A DNA stretch of 49,694 nt, taken from positions 1 through 49,694 of the forward strand of contig JADHWA010000002.1 of assembly GCA_016783715.1 (NCBI GenBank). Reading direction: 5' to 3'. This document shows positions 869 through 38,346 of the stretch, piece after piece; position 1 is the first letter of the stretch, and each line of letters begins with the position of its first letter. The position numbers and the translations under genes are program-made. The notes below the pieces were generated by a model, which ran no database searches, had not been told where the DNA came from, and worked only from the letters and a program-made list of their open reading frames with translations. Source of the DNA: Candidatus Omnitrophota bacterium. GTDB lineage: Bacteria > Omnitrophota > Gorgyraeia > Gygaellales > Profunditerraquicolaceae.

Positions 869-897
869 ATTGTACTATCTTAAAACACCCTTGTCAA
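869..897 (-). promoter_or_regulatory. sigma70-type promoter of pyrE (near-leaderless)
   Basis: Minus strand reads TTGACA (897-892), 17 nt, TACAAT (874-869), 9 nt, ATG (859). No SD lies in between. Confidence 0.5.
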
Positions 898-916
898 TTG
901 CATAAAAGCCATTCTA

Positions 917-955
917 CGATCAGGTATCGGGATGGACTGTTCCGATACCGGATCG
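917..955. repeat. CCGGTATCGG-type palindromic hairpin between divergent promoters
   Basis: CGATC-A-GGTATCGG (917-930), 11-nt loop, CCGATACC-G-GATCG (942-955). The core is shared with the hairpin at 8796-8834. Confidence 0.6.
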
Positions 956-975
956 GAAATGGGCTGTAGTCTAAA

Positions 976-1004
976 TTGACAAAGGGTCTTTAAACTGGTA
1001 TGAT
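976..1004 (+). promoter_or_regulatory. sigma70-type promoter of comF (leaderless configuration)
   Basis: TTGACA (976-981), 17 nt, TATGAT (999-1004), 7 nt, ATG (1012). No SD. Confidence 0.55.
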
Positions 1005-1011
1005 ATTCCCC

Positions 1012-1737
1012 ATGTCGAGTAGATTTCTGCACACTCTTTTGGAGATTATTTATCCTAAAAAGTGCCATGGCTGTAAGAGCAGGATCCGGACACCTTCGAC
1101 GCAAGATCTGGTCTGCGGAGATTGCTGGAGTAAGATCAAAATCAATCCGCCCCCTTTCTGTTCTCACTGCGGCAGGCACCTGGATACCAAGCGCAACAAG
1201 AAGAATATCTGCCCGGAGTGCGTAAAATTCCAGCTGCACTTCGACCGGGCCTTCAGCCCTTGCCAGTACGATGGAGTGCTTAGAGACCTGATCCATGAGT
1301 TCAAATATAAAGGCAAGGATTACTTATCCGGACCTCTTAGCCGGCTAATGACTGACTTTATCGAAGCTTATGACTTCCCGATCGGTGATATTGACCAGAT
1401 TATTCCGATACCACTGTATAAAAGCAGGCTGCGGGAGAGAGAGTTTAATCAGGCCGAGGCCCTGGGAAGCCTGATTGCGAAAAAATTTGACAGGGAGCTA
1501 AACTCAGTTAGTCTGGTGCGCAGCTCCTGGAAGAGGACACAGACCGACCTAAAAAAAGATGAGCGCCGGAGTAATGTTTTAGGTAATTTCTCGATTAAAA
1601 ACAGCTCCGGATTAAGGAATAAGAATATCCTCTTAATCGACGATGTCTTGACAACTGGCGCCACCTGTTCGGAAGCTGCCTCGGTCTTAAAGAAGGCCGG
1701 AGCCGGCATAGTCTTTGTCTTAACCCTGGCTAATTAA
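1012..1737 (+). CDS. comF: ComF family protein (double zinc-ribbon plus phosphoribosyltransferase domain)
   Basis: CxxC pairs CHGC, CGDC, CSHC and CPEC in the N-terminus. C-terminal PRTase loop ILLIDDVLTTGAT. Start moved from 1000 to ATG 1012 because 1000 lies inside the -10 hexamer. Confidence 0.8.
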   Translation: MSSRFLHTLLEIIYPKKCHGCKSRIRTPSTQDLVCGDCWSKIKINPPPFCSHCGRHLDTKRNKKNICPECVKFQLHFDRAFSPCQYDGVLRDLIHEFKYKGKDYLSGPLSRLMTDFIEAYDFPIGDIDQIIPIPLYKSRLREREFNQAEALGSLIAKKFDRELNSVSLVRSSWKRTQTDLKKDERRSNVLGNFSIKNSSGLRNKNILLIDDVLTTGATCSEAASVLKKAGAGIVFVLTLAN

Positions 1738-7711: not shown

Positions 7712-8764
7712 CTATTTTTTAGGCTTTTTAAGCAATCTCTTTATATTGCTTGCAAAAGGCGGCCTGATCACTCCTCTATCGGTTATAATAGCGCTGATCA
7801 ATTTATGCGGCGTTACATCAAATGCAGGGTTAAAAACCTTTACTCCTTTTGCGGCTATCGGTTTTTTAAAGAAAAGGGTAGTCACCTCATACCCTCTGCG
7901 CTGTTCGATCGGGATACCCTGGCCGTCTCTTATATCTAAATCAAATGTGGAGACTGGAGCTGCGATATAAAAAGGTATCCTGTGATACCGGGCAAGTACA
8001 GCCAAGCTATATGTCCCGATCTTATTGGCGGTATCACCGTTTGCGGCGATCCTGTCAGCCCCGGCGATGATCTTATCCACTCTGCGCTCTTTCATAAGTG
8101 TTGCGGCCATATTATCGCAGAGTAGCGTCACCGGCACCCTGTTCTTCTTTAACTCCCAGGTGGTAAGCCTGGCACCCTGAAGCAGGGGCCGGGTCTCACA
8201 GGCAAAAACCTCTATATTTTTCTTTAGTTGGGCAGCCCGATAAATCACACCCAGGGCAGTGCCATAATCAATCGTGGCCAGGATCCCGGCATTACAGACA
8301 GTCAATATAGAATCATTCTTTTTAATCAATGCTGCACCGTAGCTGCCGATCCTTCGGCAAGTGGCCATATCTACTTTGACAATCCTCTCTGCTTCCTTAA
8401 AGATCAGATTCTTGATCTCTGAAACAGTCTTTGAGCTGTTGCTTAAGGCGATAGCGCAGGTTCGCTCTATCCCCCAGAAGAGATTTCTGGCCGTCGGCCG
8501 TGATGATCCGATATACCTGGCAGCCTTCTCTAATTCTCTGCTGAACTGCTTAAAACTTTTGGCCCGGGAATCCCGCACCGCCAGATACATCCCGAGTGCT
8601 GCCGCAGCACCTAAGGCCGGAGCCCCCCGCACCTTCAGGAGTTTTATCGCCTGCTGTAATTGCTTTATATTATTTATGTATAAATAAACTAAGCTGTTCG
8701 GGAGTTTGGTCTGATCGATGATCTTGATCTTATTTTTTTCCCAGGTGATCGTTTTTAGTCCCAT
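7712..8764 (-). CDS. mtnA: S-methyl-5-thioribose-1-phosphate isomerase
   Basis: eIF-2B alpha/beta/delta family. VRGAPALGAAAA, ETRPLLQGARLTTWEL and GADRIAANGDTANKIGTY motifs. Confidence 0.85.
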   Translation of the reverse strand: MGLKTITWEKNKIKIIDQTKLPNSLVYLYINNIKQLQQAIKLLKVRGAPALGAAAALGMYLAVRDSRAKSFKQFSRELEKAARYIGSSRPTARNLFWGIERTCAIALSNSSKTVSEIKNLIFKEAERIVKVDMATCRRIGSYGAALIKKNDSILTVCNAGILATIDYGTALGVIYRAAQLKKNIEVFACETRPLLQGARLTTWELKKNRVPVTLLCDNMAATLMKERRVDKIIAGADRIAANGDTANKIGTYSLAVLARYHRIPFYIAAPVSTFDLDIRDGQGIPIEQRRGYEVTTLFFKKPIAAKGVKVFNPAFDVTPHKLISAIITDRGVIRPPFASNIKRLLKKPKK

Positions 8765-8795
8765 TTCTTATGCTACTCCTCCTTCCCACCCTATC

Positions 8796-8834
8796 CGCTC
8801 CGGTATCGGATAACCACTATCCGATACCGGAGCG
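8796..8834. repeat. perfect 17-bp-stem palindromic hairpin (CCGGTATCGG family)
   Basis: CGCTCCGGTATCGGATA (8796-8812), loop ACCAC, TATCCGATACCGGAGCG (8818-8834). Confidence 0.7.
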
Positions 8835-8842
8835 TAAAAGGC

Positions 8843-18493: not shown

Positions 18494-19177
18494 TTATCTG
18501 CGTTTCTTTGCGATTACCCTGGCCACCTCTAAATCCTCGGCGGTGGTCACTTTGATATTTCTGTAATCACCTGCAACTATGCTCACCTTTACGCCGAGCT
18601 TCTCCACTAAAGAAGAATCATCGGTCACATCTGATTTAGCGAATCTCCGGTATGCCGCCAACAACTTATCAATCTTAAAGACCTGGGGGGTTTGTATCTC
18701 CCAAAGCTTCTCCCGCTCCAGCGTCTTCTCTACTACCTGAGCCCGGGATGCGCTTTTAATCGTCGACTTCACCGGGACCCCTACTATAGCAGCACCACTC
18801 TCTTGGGCCCGCTTAACTACCGACGAGATTAATCTGCTGTCAATAAAGGGCCTGGCGCTATCATGAATCAACACAAGCCCGGTATCATCGCCGCAAGCCC
18901 CAAGGCCGTTATACACTGAATCCTGCCGGCGCCTGCCGCCCAAGATGATTTTACCTACCTTAGTAAGACCGCTTTCCCGCACCCGACGGGCAATCTTGGC
19001 TCGGTTGGCGGAGTTTACCACAATAATTATCTCATTAATCAAAGGGTGTCTATTTAACTCTTCCAGAGAGTATAAAAAAAGTGGCTTATTCTTGATTTTG
19101 CTAAATAGCTTACAGCCCCACCCACCAAACCTTATACCTCTTCCGGCAGCCAGTACGATCGCTGATACGCGCATCAT
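18494..19177 (-). CDS. ispD: 2-C-methyl-D-erythritol 4-phosphate cytidylyltransferase
   Basis: [11 protein letters not shown] motif. Adjacent to ispF. Confidence 0.9.
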
Positions 19178-20151
19178 TTCTCTAGCTTTGTAAAAATCAT
19201 CCTTCCAGCCTGGGTCTGTAGGACCGAGGTAACAACAACCTTTACCTCTTGTCCGATATGGCGGCGGGCATCCTCCACTACCACCATTGTTCCGTCATCC
19301 AGATAACCCACTCCCTGATTATGCTCCTTCCCCTCTTTTATCAGCTTAATCTGCATCTGCTCACCCGGAAAGACGACCGGTTTCAGGGCATTGGCCAGTT
19401 CATTTATATTAAGGATCTTCAAACCCTGCAGGCTTGCTACCCGGTTCAGGTTAAAATCTACCGTCAGGAGTTTGGCATCCAGGAGCTTACCCATCTTGAC
19501 CAGTTTTGCATCAACCTCTCTGGTCTCAGGGAACTCCTCTTCATGGAACATAATCGCTTGCGCCGACTCCTTTTGTATTGCATGCAGTATCTCTAAACCT
19601 CTTCTGCCGCGCTGCCGCTTGATCGGATCAGTGGAGTCTGCGATCTGTTGCAGTTCTTTCAGGACGAATTTAGGGATCACATATTTGCCGTCTAAGAATT
19701 TTGTTTTAATAATATCCAGAATCCTTCCGTCGATAATTACGCTTGTGTCAAAGACTGTCACATCCTCAGATTGATCCTGTCGACGCAGGCGCACATAAGG
19801 AATTATCAGGTTAAACTCATCCTTGCCGCGCAGGCCGATAGACATACCCAGGTAACAGAAGATCAGCGTCAGGATCACGCGGATCAATGAGCGGGCACTC
19901 TCTGATATCGGCGCCAGACTAAATGCATCGGCTACTAACTTCGCCATCAACAACCCCAGAAGAAGCCCGAATACAGCACTAGAGAGTCCGCGTACCGAAA
20001 CCCGGCCCATCCCTATCTCCATCAGGATGATCCCTGCCCCGGCAACCAAGCCGATTACACCACCTATGAGAAATGATCCTCCCGGAGCCATCTGATATCC
20101 TACAATAGCGCTACCTACTACAAAAAGAATCCGTAATAATAATAAATTCAT
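19174..20151 (-). CDS. yacL: PIN/TRAM domain membrane protein (YacL-like)
   Basis: N-terminal TM helices, a PIN core ([11 protein letters not shown]), and a C-terminal TRAM beta barrel. It lies between radA and ispD, as in Bacillus. Confidence 0.8.
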
Positions 20152-20162
20152 ATGATTCCTCC

Positions 20163-20263
20163 TTCAATGAGCGCATAACTTACGCGACTGCCAAGGAGCG
20201 TAAGTTATAAGCGCGAATTGATCCCGAGCCTTCCTAATTTTTTTAAAGTAGAGGCTGGGGATC
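20163..20263. repeat. modular hairpin element, copy 1 (modules A+B)
   Basis: Module A is TTCAAT-GA-GCGC-ATAACTTACGC, loop, GCGTAAGTTAT-AA-GCGC-GA-ATTGA (20163-20221). Module B is GATCCCGAGCCT/AGGCTGGGGATC (20220-20263). Confidence 0.8.
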
Positions 20264-21634
20264 TTATCTCTTCATTCCTACATCCATCGCTTCTTTTAAG
20301 GTGGAGACAGGGATAATCTCCATCCCCATCTTGGTATCTAAATTCTTATAATTATTCCTTGATAAGACACACTGCTTAAATCCCAGCTTCTGGGCCTCTT
20401 TTATCCTTAGGCCCGCCTGATTAATACTCCTGACCTCCCCGGCCAGGCCCAGCTCACCTAAAAAAATTGTATCGGCGGCGATCAAGGCGTCCTGATGTGC
20501 GGAGCTGATCGCCATCGCTACCGCAAGATCTGCAGCCGGATCCTCTATTTTGATACCGCCTGCCACATTGACAAATATATCCTCTAACTCCAGATGCAAC
20601 CCTATCCTCTTCTCCAACACCGCAATCAACAGGCTCAGGCGGTTGTAATCGAACCCTTGCGCCCTGCGGAGGGCATTCCCGAAACCGGCCTTACTAACTA
20701 ATGCCTGGATCTCCACCAGAAGCGGGCGGCTGCCCTCTAAAATGGACGCAACCACCGAACCTGAAACATCCTTTGGGCGCTCCGATAGAAAGATCTCAGA
20801 AGGATTTTTAACCTCTTTTAAGCCGGCTCCGCCCATCTCAAAGACCCCAATCTCATTGGTTGAACCGAACCTGTTCTTTACCGCCCGCAGGATCCGGTAG
20901 AGCGCAAACCTGTCCCCTTCAAAATAAAGCACGGTATCCACGATATGCTCCAGGACTCTGGGACCGGCTAACATCCCTTCTTTAGTAACATGGCCGATAA
21001 TAAACACAGATGTCCCCGTGGTTTTAGCTAACTGGGTTAATATTCCGGCGCACTCCCTTACCTGACTGACGCTCCCCGCGGATGAACTAAGATTCGGAGA
21101 AAAGACTACCTGGATGGAGTCAATAATCACCACATCCGGCTTTAACTTATTAATATGTTCGATGATCATCGCCAGATCCGTCTGATTGACAATATACAAT
21201 AAATCATTACCAATTGATTTTCCCAGCCGTTTTGCCCGCAGCTTAGTCTGAGAGGCCGACTCCTCCCCGCTGACATACAACACAGTATGACCTCCGTCGG
21301 TCAGTTGATTTGAGACCTGCAGAGAAATTGTTGACTTACCCACACCAGGATCCCCTCCGATCAGGATTACCGATCCCGGAACTATCCCGCCGCCTAAAAC
21401 CCTGTCTAACTCCAATATTCCGGTTTTAAGGCGCGACTCTTCCCTGGCTTCAACATCCTTTAGCAACACCGGACCATCTTTGTAGAGGGCGCTGTGTAAT
21501 TTTGTTTTGGCCTGCACCGGCGTATAGTCCTCTTCAAGAAAAGAATTCCAACTGGAGCAGTCAGGGCACCTCCCCTGCCACTTAGGAGATTGATAACCGC
21601 AACTCTGACAACTAAATACTGTTTTTGTCTTCAC
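20264..21634 (-). CDS. radA: DNA repair protein RadA/Sms
   Basis: N-terminal Zn ribbon CQSCGY...CPDC, Walker A GDPGVGKST, KNRFG motif, and a Lon-like C-terminal domain. Confidence 0.95.
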   Translation of the reverse strand: MKTKTVFSCQSCGYQSPKWQGRCPDCSSWNSFLEEDYTPVQAKTKLHSALYKDGPVLLKDVEAREESRLKTGILELDRVLGGGIVPGSVILIGGDPGVGKSTISLQVSNQLTDGGHTVLYVSGEESASQTKLRAKRLGKSIGNDLLYIVNQTDLAMIIEHINKLKPDVVIIDSIQVVFSPNLSSSAGSVSQVRECAGILTQLAKTTGTSVFIIGHVTKEGMLAGPRVLEHIVDTVLYFEGDRFALYRILRAVKNRFGSTNEIGVFEMGGAGLKEVKNPSEIFLSERPKDVSGSVVASILEGSRPLLVEIQALVSKAGFGNALRRAQGFDYNRLSLLIAVLEKRIGLHLELEDIFVNVAGGIKIEDPAADLAVAMAISSAHQDALIAADTIFLGELGLAGEVRSINQAGLRIKEAQKLGFKQCVLSRNNYKNLDTKMGMEIIPVSTLKEAMDVGMKR

Positions 21635-22249
21635 CTATTTATCTTCCTTTGTCTTCCAGAGTAATTTCCAGGGGTGCCTCTTTAAGTCCTCCGAGAGCTC
21701 CTCTAAATTATTGTAGAGCGTATCATCACCCAGGAGCTTACCGGCAGTCCCCTCACCGCTATTTATCTTGGTCACTGTCTGGTTAAGATTATCAACAATC
21801 CCCTTAGCCGTACGCATAACCTCATGCATCGGGACAGGGTCCACTCCTGTCATCACCTGGCCTGCCTCCAGACACTGGCTATAATCACCTCCGGGTATAA
21901 TCTCGACGTACTTCTCACCTAAAAGCCCTAATGTATTTATCCAGATCTCCGAGTCCATAGGTATCTTGACACCGCTTTTGACCCAGCTGTACAATTGCAC
22001 CTGCGTTTTTTGCTCCTGAGGAAGGAAATTAATACCTACTGCTTTAACCTCCCCCACATCCATTCCGGCAAAGCGTACCGGCGCGCCTACTTTAACGCCA
22101 TTAATGAAATCAAAAAGGAAGCTGACTTGATACCCGGAAGTCCAGGTCCGGAACTTGCCTATAGATAAAACAAAAAACGCCAGGATCACCAATCCGGCAA
22201 AGACAAAGATCCCCACTTTGAGCTCTAGTTTTGTTTTCCCGAAGATCAT
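21635..22249 (-). CDS. mlaD: MlaD/MCE family protein
   Basis: Single N-terminal TM followed by an MCE domain (GVKVGAPVRFAGMDVGEV). Confidence 0.8.
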   Translation of the reverse strand: MIFGKTKLELKVGIFVFAGLVILAFFVLSIGKFRTWTSGYQVSFLFDFINGVKVGAPVRFAGMDVGEVKAVGINFLPQEQKTQVQLYSWVKSGVKIPMDSEIWINTLGLLGEKYVEIIPGGDYSQCLEAGQVMTGVDPVPMHEVMRTAKGIVDNLNQTVTKINSGEGTAGKLLGDDTLYNNLEELSEDLKRHPWKLLWKTKEDK

Positions 22250-22261
22250 ATGATTCCTCCC

Positions 22262-22486
22262 TTCAATAAGCAGATAACTTACGGAGTGAAATGACGTAAG
22301 TTATAGTCCCGCCCTTTTGTTAAAATTTAGTTTATCAATCCGTCCCAGCCCAAAAGGGCGGGACGTCTGCGCATTGAACCCCCCACCACTTTTTAATAAA
22401 AGTCTAAAAATAAAATTAGCGATCTCTAATCTCTCTGTGTTTAATTCCCCTCGCCTACTCTTTCTCTAAAAAGTGGTGGGGGGTCA
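22262..22486. repeat. modular hairpin element, copy 2 (module A with inserted hairpin, plus long module B)
   Basis: TTCAAT at 22262 and ATTGAA ending at 22378. Inserted 14-bp hairpin at 22306-22364. 17-bp inverted repeat CCCCCCACCACTTTTTA at 22379-22395 and 22467-22483. Confidence 0.85.
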
Positions 22487-22487
22487 T

Positions 22488-29758: not shown

Positions 29759-30944
29759 ACCTTAACGCCTCCACCGGCTCCATCCGCGCTGCCCGTGCTG
29801 CCGGATAGATAGTCGAAATTACCGTAATTAACCCTGCTGCCAGGACAACTAGCAAGATATCGCCTGGGTTTACCACTACAGGCAGACTATCGATATAATA
29901 TATATCCTGGGGCAGTTTTATAAATTTATATTTTTCAAGGAGCGCACAAAGCAGCAGGCCGCCTGCTGTGCCAAGCAGAATTCCGAAGAACCCGATAATC
30001 AAACCTGCGGCGGTAAAGATCTTTCTTATATCACCGGCGGTCATCCCCAAGGCTCTTAAGATCCCGATATCCTTGGTCTTATGCACCACCACTACGATCA
30101 GTGTACTGATTATATTAAAAGATGCCACCAGGATTATCAGAGTCAGAATTATGAACATCGCCAGCTTCTCCAGCTTTAAGGCAGCGAAGAAGCTGCTGTT
30201 AGCCTCGGTCCAGCTCTTTAATAGGTAACGGAATCCTAGTTTCTGCGACAGCTCCGGGATAATACTATCTGCCAAATAGAGATCTTTCAACTTCACTGCT
30301 ACAGCACTAAAGGTTCCTTTTGCCCCTAAGATCTCCTGGGAAGTCGCAATATCCGTAAAGATCAGATTCAGGTCATAGTCATACATCCCGGAATTAAATA
30401 TTCCGGCTACCTGTAATTTGAATTCTTTACCCAGCGGCGAATACAGATTTAAGAAAGAACCCTGGTTTAAACCCAGATATACCGCTAACTCCCTGCCGAT
30501 GATTACATCTGCGGGCCCTAAGTTATCCAGGTTCCCGACTACCAAATAATTATCCAGCCGGCTGACTTCAATTTCAGTGGCAGGCTCTATCCCTCTAAGG
30601 CCCACAGCGAAAAACCGCTCGCCCTCTTTCGCCAGCACCTGCCCCTGTAGATATGGGCTGATCCCGGTAATCTCAGGGGTAGAACTCAGGCGCTCTCGTA
30701 TATCCTGGTAATCCTCCCCGGTGATCCCTTCGTAGCCGCTGATAGTGATATGCGAATAATTCCCTACGATCTTATCCCGCAGGTCCCGGTCGAATCCGGT
30801 CATCACCGCGACCACTACAATCAAGGCGGCTACACCTATGGCTACCCCAAAAATAGAGATTACGCTAATCAGGGATATAAACTTCTCTTTTCTCTTTGTA
30901 ACCAGGTAGCGCCAGCTGATAAAAAGTATATTCTTCATATTCAC
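29751..30944 (-). CDS. lolC: lipoprotein-releasing system permease (LolC/LolE, FtsX family)
   Basis: MacB-like periplasmic domain plus a C-terminal FtsX 4-TM bundle. Paired with lolD. Confidence 0.8.
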   Translation of the reverse strand: MNMKNILFISWRYLVTKRKEKFISLISVISIFGVAIGVAALIVVVAVMTGFDRDLRDKIVGNYSHITISGYEGITGEDYQDIRERLSSTPEITGISPYLQGQVLAKEGERFFAVGLRGIEPATEIEVSRLDNYLVVGNLDNLGPADVIIGRELAVYLGLNQGSFLNLYSPLGKEFKLQVAGIFNSGMYDYDLNLIFTDIATSQEILGAKGTFSAVAVKLKDLYLADSIIPELSQKLGFRYLLKSWTEANSSFFAALKLEKLAMFIILTLIILVASFNIISTLIVVVVHKTKDIGILRALGMTAGDIRKIFTAAGLIIGFFGILLGTAGGLLLCALLEKYKFIKLPQDIYYIDSLPVVVNPGDILLVVLAAGLITVISTIYPAARAARMEPVEALRYE

Positions 30945-32386
30945 TCTTGCGCCGGGCGCAAAAGAGGAAAAAAGATTACTTCACGGATCGAAGATTGATT
31001 CGTAAGCAACATCACTAATCTATCTATACCGATCCCCAACCCACCTGCCGGCGGCATCCCATGCTCCAGAGCCAGGAGATAATCCTCGTCAAGCGTCTTC
31101 TTCTCTTCCTTAGTCAGCTCTTTAATCTCTTCCTCAAACCGCCTGCGCTGCTCCTCCGGATTATTCTGCTCAGAGTATGCATTGCCTACTTCAAGCCCCG
31201 CGATGTATAACTCAAACCTCTCGCTGATCAGAGGATTATCCCTCCTGGTCTTGGCCAGCGGAGAAAGATTTGCAAAATAATCCGTGACAAATACCGGATT
31301 CATGCTCATCTCTTCCTCAAGGATATCCTCCATTATCTTGGCGATCTGCGAGCGGCTAAGCCGGGCGGCCTCTTTGGCCACCCCTTTCTTACGTAATTTT
31401 TTGAGCATCTCTTCAGCGCTATCCTCCGGAGTGACTCCGAATTTCTTCTTTACCACCTCGGCGAAAGAGATACGCTGCCAGGGTAATGAGAGATCAACGC
31501 TCTTACCCTGGTATTCAAAAACAGTATTGCCGATGGCCTCTTTGGCCGCGCTTATAATCAGCTCCTGCGACAGCTGCATCATATCCTCATAATTTGCGTA
31601 TGCCGCATAGACCTCCAGCATGGTAAATTCCGGATTATGCTTAACCGAAACCCCCTCATTCCTGAAAGAGCGGTTTATCTCGTAGACTCGCTCTAACCCC
31701 CCGACCAATAACCTCTTTAAATAAAGCTCAGGGGCAATCCTTAAGTTCAACTCCATGCTGTATTCATTATGAAAGGTCTTAAAAGGCCTGCCGGCTGCGC
31801 CCCCTGCGATCGTATGCATCATCGGCGTCTCTACCTCTAAATAGTCACGGCTGTCCAGGAACTTTCTTATCGCGCTAATCACCTGCGAGCGCCTGATAAA
31901 AACCTCTTTTATCTGCTGGTTACTTACCAGGTCCAGATAACGCTGTCGATAGCGCAGCTCCACGTCTTTTAAGCCATGCCACTTCTCCGGCAGGGGCCTC
32001 AAGGCCTTGGATAGAACCGTTACCTCATCGACCTTAACCGTATCTTCTCCGGTACGAGTCTTAAAAAGCTCGCCCTTTACATTGATAAAGTCAGCTACCT
32101 CTAGATTTTCGAAGATTTCGAATTGCTCTGTACCGATAACATCAGCCTTAACGTAAAGCTGGATCTTTCCGCTGGCATCTCGAAGGTCGGAGAATATTGC
32201 TTTGCCATGGGCGCGTCTGGCGGTAATCCTGCCACAAAGGCTCACCTTTAGGCCTTCCTTAAAATATCCTAAAGCCTCTGATATAGAGGAATGCCCTGGG
32301 GTGACACTGGGATATAAATCCACACCCCTTGCCTTAAGCGCTTGGGCCTTCTGTTTCTTCTGTTGGATTAATTCTTCTATGTCCAT
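30941..32386 (-). CDS. lysS: lysine--tRNA ligase (class II)
   Basis: OB anticodon-binding domain plus class II motifs (FRNEG, GGLGIGIDRL). Start set at ATG 32386. The longer track ORF reads through a palindromic repeat. Confidence 0.9.
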   Translation of the reverse strand: MDIEELIQQKKQKAQALKARGVDLYPSVTPGHSSISEALGYFKEGLKVSLCGRITARRAHGKAIFSDLRDASGKIQLYVKADVIGTEQFEIFENLEVADFINVKGELFKTRTGEDTVKVDEVTVLSKALRPLPEKWHGLKDVELRYRQRYLDLVSNQQIKEVFIRRSQVISAIRKFLDSRDYLEVETPMMHTIAGGAAGRPFKTFHNEYSMELNLRIAPELYLKRLLVGGLERVYEINRSFRNEGVSVKHNPEFTMLEVYAAYANYEDMMQLSQELIISAAKEAIGNTVFEYQGKSVDLSLPWQRISFAEVVKKKFGVTPEDSAEEMLKKLRKKGVAKEAARLSRSQIAKIMEDILEEEMSMNPVFVTDYFANLSPLAKTRRDNPLISERFELYIAGLEVGNAYSEQNNPEEQRRRFEEEIKELTKEEKKTLDEDYLLALEHGMPPAGGLGIGIDRLVMLLTNQSSIREVIFFPLLRPAQE

Positions 32387-32388
32387 AA

Positions 32389-32536
32389 TCAAGTAATTGA
32401 GGAATTGAGGTGTTTTTCCACACCCCCTCATCCTGAGGAGCGAAGCGACGAAGGATCTCATGAGATCCTTTAGCCCTTCGGGCTTCAGGATGACCAGTCG
32501 GGGATAATAAAAAACTCCCCGACTGGTCAAGTAATT
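32389..32536. mobile_element. MITE-like triple-hairpin insertion flanked by a 10-bp direct repeat TCAAGTAATT
   Basis: Direct repeats at 32389-32398 and 32527-32536. Internal hairpins at 32409-32424, 32429-32492 (64-nt palindrome) and 32494-32526 (11-bp stem). Confidence 0.5.
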
Positions 32537-33608: not shown

Positions 33609-33618
33609 TTAAACCCCC

Positions 33619-33834
33619 TTCAATGAACACATAATTTACGATCCGCCGCAGGCGGAGAGTAAATTATATGTGTGAATTGAACCCCCCACCACTTTTTAAT
33701 AAAAGTCTAAAAAATAAAATTAACGATACAACTAACTACTTTATATTAAATAAATCCCGCCACCCACTCCTTCTCTAAAAAGTGGTGGGGGGTCAAATTC
33801 GGCCATCGAACTTACGTTACCGTAAGTTCGGGCC
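33619..33834. repeat. modular hairpin element, copy 3 (modules A+B+C)
   Basis: Module A at 33619-33681. Module B is the 17-bp inverted repeat at 33682-33698 and 33776-33792. AAATTCGG at 33795-33802. Module C hairpin at 33801-33834. Confidence 0.85.
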
Positions 33835-34245
33835 TCATTTGACTGTTCCCTTGACCACAAACTTTGATATGGGCTCTTCTGGATCGTCGGTAATCACATA
33901 GATGTGCTGCTTGACCACCCCGGAATACCCCTTACTGTTAAACTTCACATCTAAAGAGGTGCTCTCGCCGACAGAAAGCAAGCGCTTCTTGACATCAGAA
34001 ACCGTACAGCCGCAGCTTGTATTTACATCCTTGACCTGGAGATCTCTCTCTGTTGTGTTCTTAAATATAAACTCATGCTTTAATACATCCCCCTCCCTTA
34101 CCTGGCCAAAATCCCAGAAGTCAGCGATATCTGAGAGAGGCGAGGGACTGGTAGGCAGGGACTTCTGTCCCCCGGCACAACCGAAAAACAGACAACTTAT
34201 CATCGCTATTAATATAACTGAGACCTGCGGTCTGCCTAACATCAA
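33835..34245 (-). CDS. DUF1573 domain protein (probable lipoprotein)
   Basis: Lipobox-like LFFGCAG. DFGQV...G....H.F.F.N......V..SCGCT is the DUF1573 signature. Confidence 0.8.
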   Translation of the reverse strand: MMLGRPQVSVILIAMISCLFFGCAGGQKSLPTSPSPLSDIADFWDFGQVREGDVLKHEFIFKNTTERDLQVKDVNTSCGCTVSDVKKRLLSVGESTSLDVKFNSKGYSGVVKQHIYVITDDPEEPISKFVVKGTVK

Positions 34246-38063: not shown

Positions 38064-38093
38064 TTTTTCCTTTTAAGCTTAACCTAACCCTAC

Positions 38094-38309
38094 TTCAATA
38101 AGCACATCACTTAGCGAGTGCTAACGAAGCTAAGTGATAAGTGCGCATTGAACCCTGCACCCAAACAAGTAACAGTAGATACAAAACTGGGTGCGGGGTA
38201 AATTCGGGCACGGCCCATGGCTTACGTCATTTTCCCGCCAATCATTTACTTGTATCGCGGGATCCCGCCTCGATTCTATTTAGAATGGCGGGACATTCCG
38301 TAAGTCATG
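38094..38309. repeat. modular hairpin element, copy 4 (modules A+B+extended C)
   Basis: Module A at 38094-38152. Module B at 38152-38163 and 38188-38199. AAATTCGG at 38200-38207. Module C outer stem at 38216-38226 and 38299-38309, enclosing TCCCGCC/GGCGGGA and the palindrome GCGGGATCCCGC. Confidence 0.8.
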
Positions 38310-38318
38310 CCCTCACTT

Positions 38319-38346
38319 ATGATAATATAAATGCGCGATAATTCAA
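38319..38346 (-). promoter_or_regulatory. candidate promoter upstream of element copy 4 and the HD-GYP gene
   Basis: Minus strand reads TTGAAT (38346-38341), 16 nt, TATCAT (38324-38319). Confidence 0.35.

Follow-up and report, generated by a model that had tools for sequence, protein, structure and literature searches.

Mycobacterial interspersed repetitive units (MIRUs) are intercistronic operon repeats which stand in one orientation, touch both a stop codon and the next start codon, and vary in unit number among strains. The early mRNA of phage T7 carries RNase III hairpins (e.g. R1.1) of ~20 bp with an internal loop, which lie between cistrons upstream of the next ribosome-binding site. 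Repetitive extragenic palindromes (REPs) are short imperfect palindromes present in many copies, outside genes but transcribed, and often in operons (PMC3049150 and PMC3733652). REPs and the pneumococcal repeats lie mostly downstream of genes, REPs also between convergent genes (same sources), and PMC3733652 reports a REP family in Planctomycetes, a phylum under which some of the related metagenome-assembled genome (MAG) records used here are titled. Bacterial miniature inverted-repeat transposable elements (MITEs) are co-transcribed as hairpins which can affect mRNA cleavage or stability (PMC3049150). In this study, we analyzed a 49.7-kb stretch of DNA from a Candidatus Omnitrophota bacterium (contig JADHWA010000002.1, hereafter the window) and found that positions 20164-20263, between radA and yacL on the minus strand, are probably a truncated copy of a composite palindromic repeat, consisting of two hairpins termed B and A, and that this repeat is probably non-autonomous, mobile or recombining, and of the kind represented by REP dimers, bacterial interspersed mosaic elements (BIMEs) and MITEs. 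The family behaves like one that is gained and lost at the stop-to-start junctions of tightly packed Omnitrophota operons.

The radA-yacL junction, with what we call copy 1 of the repeat and the Shine-Dalgarno sequence (SD) of yacL, is composed of the following features.

20264-21634, minus strand: radA open reading frame (ORF), with zinc ribbon, AAA_25 and ChlI/Lon_C domains (Pfam)
20264-20275, minus strand: end of radA, ATGAAGAGA followed by TAA, resembling a decayed native junction TTAAGGAGGTAA
20266-20264, minus strand: radA stop codon TAA
20164-20263, minus strand: copy 1, hairpins B and A
20220-20263, minus strand: module B of copy 1, with arms 20263-20252 (GATCCCCAGCCT) and 20231-20220 (AGGCTCGGGATC)
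20164-20221, minus strand: module A (the right-hand unit) of copy 1, 74 bits and E 8.8e-16 with covariance model R1, copy 1 being itself among the seeds of the model
20149-20163, minus strand: yacL start region, AGGAGG 20163-20158 (GGAGG 20162-20158), spacer AATCAT and ATG
19174-20151, minus strand: yacL ORF, with PIN and TRAM domains (YacL-like, Pfam) and ATG at 20151-20149

The gap is 112 nt and reads, with the flanking codons, TAA, GATCCCCAGCCT, 20 nt, AGGCTCGGGATC, AATTC GCGC TT, ATAACTTACGC, 12 nt, GCGTAAGTTAT, GCGC TC ATTGA A GGAGG AATCAT ATG. Module B begins directly after the radA stop codon and forms a 12-bp stem with one mismatch (C.C on the minus strand, G-G on the plus strand) and a 20-nt A/U-rich loop; it has the shape typical of the family, the 5' arm being rich in C and the 3' arm, rich in G, running into TCAAT. 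The inner stem of module A is 11 bp long and is formed by ATAACTTACGC (20208-20198) with GCGTAAGTTAT (20185-20175) around a 12-nt loop. Outside it, after a TT bulge, GCGC (20214-20211) pairs with GCGC (20174-20171), and TCAAT (20221-20217) with ATTGA (20168-20164), the latter two helices being separated by a TC/TC 2x2 internal loop. All pairs of this unit are standard in the covariance-model alignment, the hairpin ends one base 5' of the SD, and the RNA fold z-score of the copy 1 region is -3.9. A previous reading of this DNA from its letters alone (the sequence-only reading) had stated that hairpin B, 12 bp with one mismatch, and hairpin A fill the space from the radA stop to the yacL SD, and the coordinates check on the sequence. 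The 11-bp stem of module A is also where that reading had put it, but the hairpin is longer and extends outward through GCGC/GCGC, TC/TC and TCAAT/ATTGA.

The same reading took the junction to be one copy of a modular repeated hairpin element, which is supported. The window copies, at ~20162, ~22261, ~33618 and ~38093 (plus-strand coordinates), share a frame composed of B with its C-rich 5' and G-rich 3' arms, (T)TCAAT, hairpin A and (T/C)(C/T)ATTGAAG, and together they comprise four A units and two inverted units termed A'. A strand-specific scan of metagenomes with a pattern built from the outer helices (TCAATKYRCRC N20-50 GYGYTYATTGAAG) gave at least 120 loci, of which ~110 are true elements; these contigs carry no taxonomy. 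The same pattern gave a single match in 2.9 million viral contigs, hairpin-less and within a coding region, as expected of a chance match. By fold z-score, model score and the contrast between metagenome and viral match counts, the structure of copy 1 exceeds chance. Covariance model R1, built for the A unit, found 30 matches in 16 of 80 related species (defined below) and, among the matches listed, 198 matches in 100 metagenome loci, with up to 8 matches in 13 kb (L129); some element-rich contigs have one model match, to A or A', every 1.5-3 kb. The G+C content of the matches ranges from about 0.3 to 0.67.

The A alignment contains 107 metagenome-derived units, in which 97.2% of the cells are paired and 10 of 19 pairs, including 8 of the 10 inner-stem pairs, covary, with changes on both sides in 237 cells. 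None of 500 shuffles reached the observed values, and no slid register came close. The UC/UC internal loop of this start-side hairpin is near-invariant (TC in 105/107 and 102/107), and three features not forced by the search pattern are conserved among the metagenome copies, namely the inner stem ..ACTTAYG/CRTAAGT.., GGGT preceding TCAAT (65/107), and GAGG or GAGA following ATTGAAG (68/107). The full form of the element is A'-B-A, as many B hairpins have a model match on the other strand immediately upstream of them, and A' is a diverged inverted version of A; copy 1 is B and A without A'. The consensus of A' is (A/T)AA(A/G)-TGA-(A/G)GCC, the ..ACTTAYG stem, a loop often with a GCGAAGC-type mini-hairpin, CRTAAGT.. 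and GG(C)(T/C)-GA-A(T/C)TT. In the alignment of 24 A' units, 97% of the cells are paired and 11 of 18 pairs covary. These include pairs of the outer helix, which change from A-U to G-C and flank an invariant tandem G.A motif (U-GA...GA-A) on both sides. The element ends in T(C/A)AAATGA(A/G)GCC and GYGCTCATTGA, terminal inverted repeats which enclose a short non-coding element. Its central hairpin, B, is variable and falls into several sequence families, CCCTTGACA.., CCCCACACCCAG.., CCCAGCACTAATTTT.., CCCGCCC.. and others. Modules also nest within modules (A of copy 2, A' of copy 4 and A' of L094), and units stand in tandem in L121, L031 and L067.

In a common B family, CCCTTGACA...TGTCAAGGG, the sigma-70 -35 hexamer TTGACA precedes an A/T-rich loop, and this TTGACA-type hairpin occurs in L092, L104, L114, L122, L131, L132, L163, L180, L182 and L202. 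Two coding-type readings of A' were tried and rejected. A mini-ORF in A' (MKPxLTERSE..) has early stop codons in several copies, and its apparently synonymous GAG/GAA changes, occurring together with AGC/AGT changes, are compensatory pairs of the GCGAAGC/ACGAAGT mini-hairpin. The left end of A' does not generally supply the upstream stop codon either: only 11 of 85 longest upstream ORFs stop at the invariant TGA, the others stopping just before it or inside A', and the TGA recurs as part of the tandem G.A motif.

For the history of the junction, we used 80 Candidatus Omnitrophota species (L004-L083) which were found with the window YacL at 70-84% YacL identity; all related records retrieved are MAGs. 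An exact match of the YacL protein traces the window to a metagenome (ENA ERZ24794676 and Logan runs), whereas RadA gave no exact match, probably because its start is called differently. The order mlaE-mlaF-mlaD-radA-yacL-ispD is kept in essentially all of them, and the junction lengths range from 5 to 258 nt (median ~27) for radA-yacL and from -7 to 482 nt for mlaF-mlaD. In the closest relative, L012 (84% YacL identity), radA and yacL are ~7 nt and mlaF and mlaD 28 nt apart, with no element at either junction; copy 1 is therefore an insertion. Which junctions the family occupies differs between species: radA-yacL in the window, L031, L028, L035, L059 and L057; mlaF-mlaD in the window, L007 and L067; mlaE-mlaF in L018, L054, L017, L024 and L032; and yacL-ispD in L057, L008, L013, L032 and L022. 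Presence/absence polymorphism at orthologous sites is thus a property of the family. At the orthologous loci L121 (positions 1628-1787) and L134, one extra B+A unit is present in L121, and identity is 97.8% in the common part of the element as compared to 88-92% in the flanking genes; the repeat either evolves more slowly there than its neighbours or is homogenised. Within the window, copies 2 and 3 stand beside unrelated genes, yet their B modules are 92% and 87% identical, which indicates recent copying. Variable junction occupancy, the unit difference between L121 and L134 and the identity of the B modules are the behaviour of an interspersed, mobile or recombining repeat.

Several observations weigh against a simple non-autonomous mobile element. 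There is no clear target-site duplication: the longest common string of the two flanks averages 4.9 nt as compared to 4.2 nt in shuffled pairs, and the flanking repeats, 2 to 17 nt in length, are only modestly above those of shuffled pairs and long in few copies. No transposase partner was noticed between A' and A in the hit tables, of which no systematic screen was made. The conservation of a unit of 60 nt across species with 70-84% YacL identity and across G+C contents of about 0.3 to 0.67 would be uncommon in a selfish repeat and suggests either constraint or a trans-acting partner which is itself conserved. A plain DNA transposon would not be expected to show strict polarity, and every step that we propose below at the RNA level is inferred. 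As regards the ends themselves, TA...TA termini occur in TAAAT-type copies. Direct repeats of SD, spacer and ATG flank the full-length elements of L090 (17 nt, AAGGAAGTCAAAATGAA) and L151 (13 nt, GGAGAGTAAAATG), where the whole overlapping stop/start junction looks duplicated on insertion; in most other copies, only short or SD-like repeats are seen.

REP dimers, REP doublets forming hairpins (REPINs) and BIMEs share with the family their many copies, transcribed location outside genes, inverted unit pairs with motifs between them, mosaic build and ability to form larger folds (PMC3733652, PMC3049150). A REP, however, is a palindrome of 20-40 nt, whereas the A' or A unit is ~60 nt long with three stacked helices, and the units of the family come in a left and a right form (A' and A), keep one polarity relative to the genes, and abut the next SD or start codon. 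By the definition given in PMC3733652, a REP carries an unpaired GTAG or CGTC tag at one end of the palindrome. Such a tag is absent here: GTAG occurs in 5/107 A and 2/24 A' units, and CGTC in 27/107 A units, not at an end but mostly at ungapped positions 25-30, near the boundary of the stem and the apical loop. MITEs such as the Correia elements of Neisseria, BOX of pneumococcus and ERIC (enterobacterial repetitive intergenic consensus) of enterobacteria are likewise non-coding, shorter than 300 bp and bounded by inverted repeats, with variation in presence and in unit number, and BOX is also modular (boxA-boxB(n)-boxC). Unlike them, the family has no clear target-site duplication, related insertion sequence (IS) identified, or promoter or terminator signal above background, is conserved in widely differing species and not within a single group of them, and has a near-absolute polarity. 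MIRUs resemble it in their stop-to-start site between cistrons and in unit-number variation (compare L121 and L134), but they are direct tandem repeats with small coupling ORFs and not hairpins. The T7 hairpins are alike in form and placement and may be a functional analogue, although they are not repeated mobile sequences and have no sequence relationship to the family. What sets the family apart from REPs, BIMEs and MITEs is the combination of composite 60-nt left and right units, near-absolute polarity, placement as translational punctuation and conservation in many species.

Searches for known elements gave no other identity. The window has no Rfam match at the gathering score, and five canonical loci gave, at an E-value threshold, only far-sub-threshold matches (three microRNA-precursor models, and one tmRNA model elsewhere in L095). 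No tRNA or tmRNA was found in a scan of the window, and no U-tract terminator-like site in the element. Sigma-70 promoter-like matches numbered 6 as compared to 3.8 +/- 2.2 in shuffles, and the sole match touching the element would start transcription inside yacL. In the literature, no description was found for the terminal sequences or for Omnitrophota repeats, and the family is apparently undescribed.

The base pairing of A is almost wholly Watson-Crick. Among 1922 cells, the apical pair excluded, there are 8 G-U, 10 A-C and 12 other mismatches; the absence of a G-U excess suggests that copying or correction of the stems takes place on DNA, that both strands matter, or that the copies are young. 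A constraint on RNA only would normally give more G-U than A-C. It might be thought that the element is a single-stranded DNA substrate of recombination, used by an HUH/Y1 transposase (IS200/IS605, or REP-associated tyrosine transposase, RAYT) or by a tyrosine recombinase in the manner of attC, with the RNA structure as a by-product. In attC sites and IS608 ends, mismatches mark strand identity, and the conserved asymmetric mismatches of the family (TC/TC, GA/GA) could do the same. Besides the strict, strand-symmetric pairing, this explanation would account for the inverted unit pairs, which are like those of REP dimers (PMC3733652). We nevertheless hold it to be very unlikely, since the element has neither the GTAG/CGTC end tag nor the GTTRRRY core of attC, lies among core syntenic genes rather than cassettes, and is oriented with the local gene and not with the replichore, and no candidate enzyme was seen, though the loci were not screened for one. 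Integron attC sites were rejected on similar grounds, as the ends are TCAAT...ATTGA without RYYYAAC...GTTRRRY cores and the flanking genes are core genes, syntenic in the 80 species. Fixed polarity with transcription and the differentiation of A' and A (sense G.A versus sense UC/UC) also argue against a purely DNA-level role.

The sequence-only reading had further observed that the region around the yacL start is nearly identical to that of the copy before mlaD, with a common SD and spacer, and had suggested an element that brings its own ribosome-binding site. Both observations hold. The two copies share TCATATGATTCCTCC and, after a 1-nt indel, TTCAAT.AGC..ATAACTTACG, and the 14-mer GGAGGAATCATATG is identical before yacL (20149-20162) and mlaD (22247-22260) and occurs nowhere else in the window. 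To a portable translation-initiation cassette, which would deliver an SD and a spacer to the downstream gene, one could also credit the spacer AATCAT before mlaD, which is that of yacL and unlike the mlaD spacers of relatives (yacL of L012 has TAATCAT). Similarly, many genes of the window are without a recognisable SD, and the element-associated yacL, mlaD and M48 peptidase genes are among those with the strongest SDs. In the metagenome copies, ATTGAAG is followed by GAGG in 51/107 and by GAGA in 17/107 (68/107 together), though the pattern required ...ATTGAAG and was thereby biased to purine-rich flanks, and in roughly 80 of the 107 the start of an ORF with 60 codons or more lies 7-15 nt beyond ATTGAAG, the remainder being mostly contig ends or arrays. 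This idea was confronted with SD use at five junctions in the 80 species, where a junction of less than 55 nt is counted as compact and any junction of at least 55 nt, not only those with the A'-B-A family, as filled.

Before yacL: SD in 48/49 compact and 24/26 filled junctions
Before mlaD: SD in 45/46 compact and 16/16 filled junctions
Before mlaF: no SD in 47/48 compact and 10/11 filled junctions
Before radA: no SD in 41/46 compact and 14/16 filled junctions
Before ispD: no SD in 55/56 compact and 4/5 filled junctions

Presence of an SD is thus a property of the downstream gene and not of the filling of the junction, which largely refutes the cassette. In addition, the right end of the element (CTCATTGAG, CTCATTTAAG, CTCATTTA; ...GCGCTCATTGAG) directly abuts the ATG at junctions lacking an SD, and within tandem arrays no GAGG comes after the internal A units. 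The yacL start region of the element-free L012 is TTAAGGAGGTAATCATATG (AAGGAGGTAATCATATG) and that of the window TTGAAGGAGGAATCATATG; since the SD and spacer are present without the element, they are ancestral to yacL and not part of the repeat. The suggestion that the element carries its own ribosome-binding site is thus not supported, and we regard such a cassette as highly improbable. The identity between yacL and mlaD could instead be due to local gene conversion between copies 1 and 2, which are 2.1 kb apart, carrying SD and spacer to mlaD. In L012 and several other relatives, radA ends in ...TTA AGG AGG TAA, which is at once the C-terminus of RadA and the SD of yacL. In the window it ends in ...ATG AAG AGA TAA, which looks like a decayed second copy of that native sequence.

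Apart from the question of the cassette, SD use is fixed per gene in the 80 species. The SD of mlaD and yacL is strong in nearly all of them, and in many cases the final codons of the preceding gene form it. In the junctions inspected, mlaF, radA and ispD start at or beside the stop codon of the preceding gene, in overlaps of the ATGA/TAATG type.

Of the gene-strand A units in related genomes, nearly all end at the SD or ATG of the next gene, and most A' units that could be checked against mapped genes begin at or just after the stop codon of the previous gene. L144 contains two oppositely facing units, each preceding its own gene, and polarity therefore tracks the local gene and not the chromosome arm. 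The downstream genes are unrelated housekeeping genes, encoding HrcA, flavodoxin, PFK, NDK, EF-Tu, DnaK, a TyrS/TrpS-type aminoacyl-tRNA synthetase, a FabG-type reductase and others, so that they do not form a regulon; a riboswitch or regulon was rejected on this ground and because the element is mostly absent from orthologous junctions. A covarying structured element directly 5' of the SD might also be taken for a cis-regulatory leader specific to yacL, i.e. a riboswitch, a protein-binding operator or a thermosensor. This is scarcely credible, since the same unit precedes many unrelated genes and is absent from the orthologous junction of most relatives, the predicted folds do not sequester the SD, and Rfam gives no match.

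Sense-strand polarity which follows gene direction is also what a dedicated RNA processing or stability module would have. Its hairpins, roughly 20 bp long with internal loops, would be cut by a double-strand-specific or other endonuclease, in the manner of T7 RNase III sites or Correia elements, and segment the operon mRNA, the upstream cistron keeping a protective 3' hairpin and the downstream cistron starting beside its SD. Helices which measure about two turns and whose internal loops are conserved (UC/UC in A, tandem G.A in A'), the length of the B stems of copies 2 and 3 (19-25 bp), and a unit more conserved than its flanking genes (L121 versus L134) are in line with such a module, as is the precedent that Correia elements act with RNase III and ERIC with RNase E (PMC3049150). 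However, pairing is equally strict on both strands without G-U excess, and the orthologous junctions of most relatives work without the element. We therefore consider a dedicated module unlikely, and retain a mobile or recombining repeat as the probable explanation of copy 1.

In the most likely scenario, the repeat would have spread as a non-autonomous palindromic element by some route, and copy 1 would have entered a ~7-nt junction where TTA AGG AGG TAA of radA doubled as the SD of yacL. One copy of that sequence, now decayed, would end radA, and the other would remain as the SD and spacer of yacL. The element is presumably co-transcribed in the operon mRNA, where its modules would fold locally into two or three independent hairpins. 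Because those at radA-yacL begin at the stop codon, a terminating ribosome would have to open part of B, while the SD would stay unpaired and yacL would be translated from its own ancestral signals, uncoupled from radA termination, the original overlap-type coupling being lost. That the units strictly follow gene direction suggests that insertions are filtered by selection acting on mRNA or translation; only stop-to-start insertions would survive, and these only if oriented so that both ends are compatible with translation. At the stop end, a representative A' inspected by eye has stop codons in all three frames within ~35 nt, and at the start end the helix would finish just before an unpaired purine-rich SD. 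The radA segment may also be protected from 3' exonucleases, or a nuclease site may be created, as is known of REP/BIME, ERIC and Correia elements (PMC3049150). A positive role, such as stabilising transcript segments or marking processing sites, is possible.

Alternatively, A'-B-A may be a functional polar intercistronic RNA device, bridging stop to start or serving in processing across Omnitrophota, rather than a tolerated selfish repeat. The stop codon lies within the invariant U-GA/GA-A of A', the start signals follow directly after the last A helix, and the left-end AAUGA can pair with the right-end UCAUU. The base of the element would thus bring the upstream stop and the downstream SD or start together, and a terminating ribosome could be handed over ~100-250 nt of folded RNA, coupling being preserved even at the SD-less mlaE-mlaF and yacL-ispD junctions. 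It may also be that a dedicated conserved protein or nuclease recognises the unit. We think it quite unlikely that such a device is the correct explanation.

The other copies of the family in the window are as follows.

22250-22487, minus strand: copy 2, mlaF-mlaD junction; 22255-22315 scores 19.3 bits; fold z -7.0
33609-33849, minus strand: copy 3, full-length A'-B-A between the DUF1573 gene and the M48 peptidase gene; fold z -8.2
38087-38320, minus strand: copy 4, upstream of a HAMP/HD-GYP gene; 68.8 bits; fold z -4.1

Copy 2 lies within the conserved mlaE-mlaF-mlaD cluster, in which MlaD is supported by Pfam. Its B hairpin is long, with arms at 22460-22484 and 22378-22402, and is followed by TCAAT-GC-GCAG and a second B-type hairpin (GTCCCGCCCTTTTGG...CAAAAGGGCGGGAC) nested inside A, with the motifs GTCCCGCC/GGCGGGAC at 22357-22364 and 22306-22313; after this nested hairpin come the inner stem of A and then CTGC-TT-ATTGA-AGGGAGG. 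Copy 3 scores 66.9 bits on the minus strand and, for A' (33788-33849), 38.7 bits on the plus strand; its B arms are at ~33681-33705 and ~33776-33801 and its A at 33612-33686, and the stop codon of the DUF1573 gene (TGA, 33837-33835) falls inside A'. Copy 4 consists of A (38087-38157), B (38152-38199) and A' (~38211-38314), with a GTCCCGCC/GGCGGGA module nested in the A' loop (38233-38294), an arrangement also found in metagenome locus L094; its SD is not adjacent, and the ATG lies 30 nt after ATTGAAG.

Other palindromes are also present. One, CGCTCCGGTATCGGATA..TATCCGATACCGGAGCG, occurs twice in the window, at 8789-8841, directly 5' of the SD of an ORF (7712-8764, minus strand), and at 912-962, between ORFs 880-1296 (minus strand) and 1000-1737 (plus strand); it may be an operator site or a second family of hairpin repeats. 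At 32428-32521, beside a CCAGTCGGGGA/TCCCCGACTGG hairpin, a palindrome with 33-nt arms, 79% complementary and without spacer, lies ~120-215 nt downstream of the M48 peptidase stop (32643) and partly overlaps a TTG-start ORF (30941-32530) whose start is doubtful. At the same junctions of related genomes and loci there are other hairpin-repeat families, for example GCACCCGGCGC...GCGCCGGTGC units (L007, L060, L161, L173) and ATCAGAA-type repeats in the radA-yacL gap of L034. Small hairpins that continue with their 3' arm into the SD, e.g. TTGCCCttgtGGGCAAGGAGG, are present in many of the compact junctions.

Omnitrophota are a widespread phylum known almost entirely from MAGs, and features of sequence are nearly all that is known of their gene expression. 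Abundance, conservation in many species, polarity and placement from stop to start are an unusual combination among bacterial interspersed repeats. As the number of units varies, the family is a marker for annotation and strain typing of Omnitrophota. Annotators should also be cautioned not to take the long structured intergenic regions of these operons for conserved regulators, as they are insertions. The junctions offer a natural experiment on translational coupling, in which stable hairpins of 100-250 nt have been inserted between stop and start. If the hairpins are processed, or if ribosomes are handed over across them, they would represent a new kind of operon punctuation.

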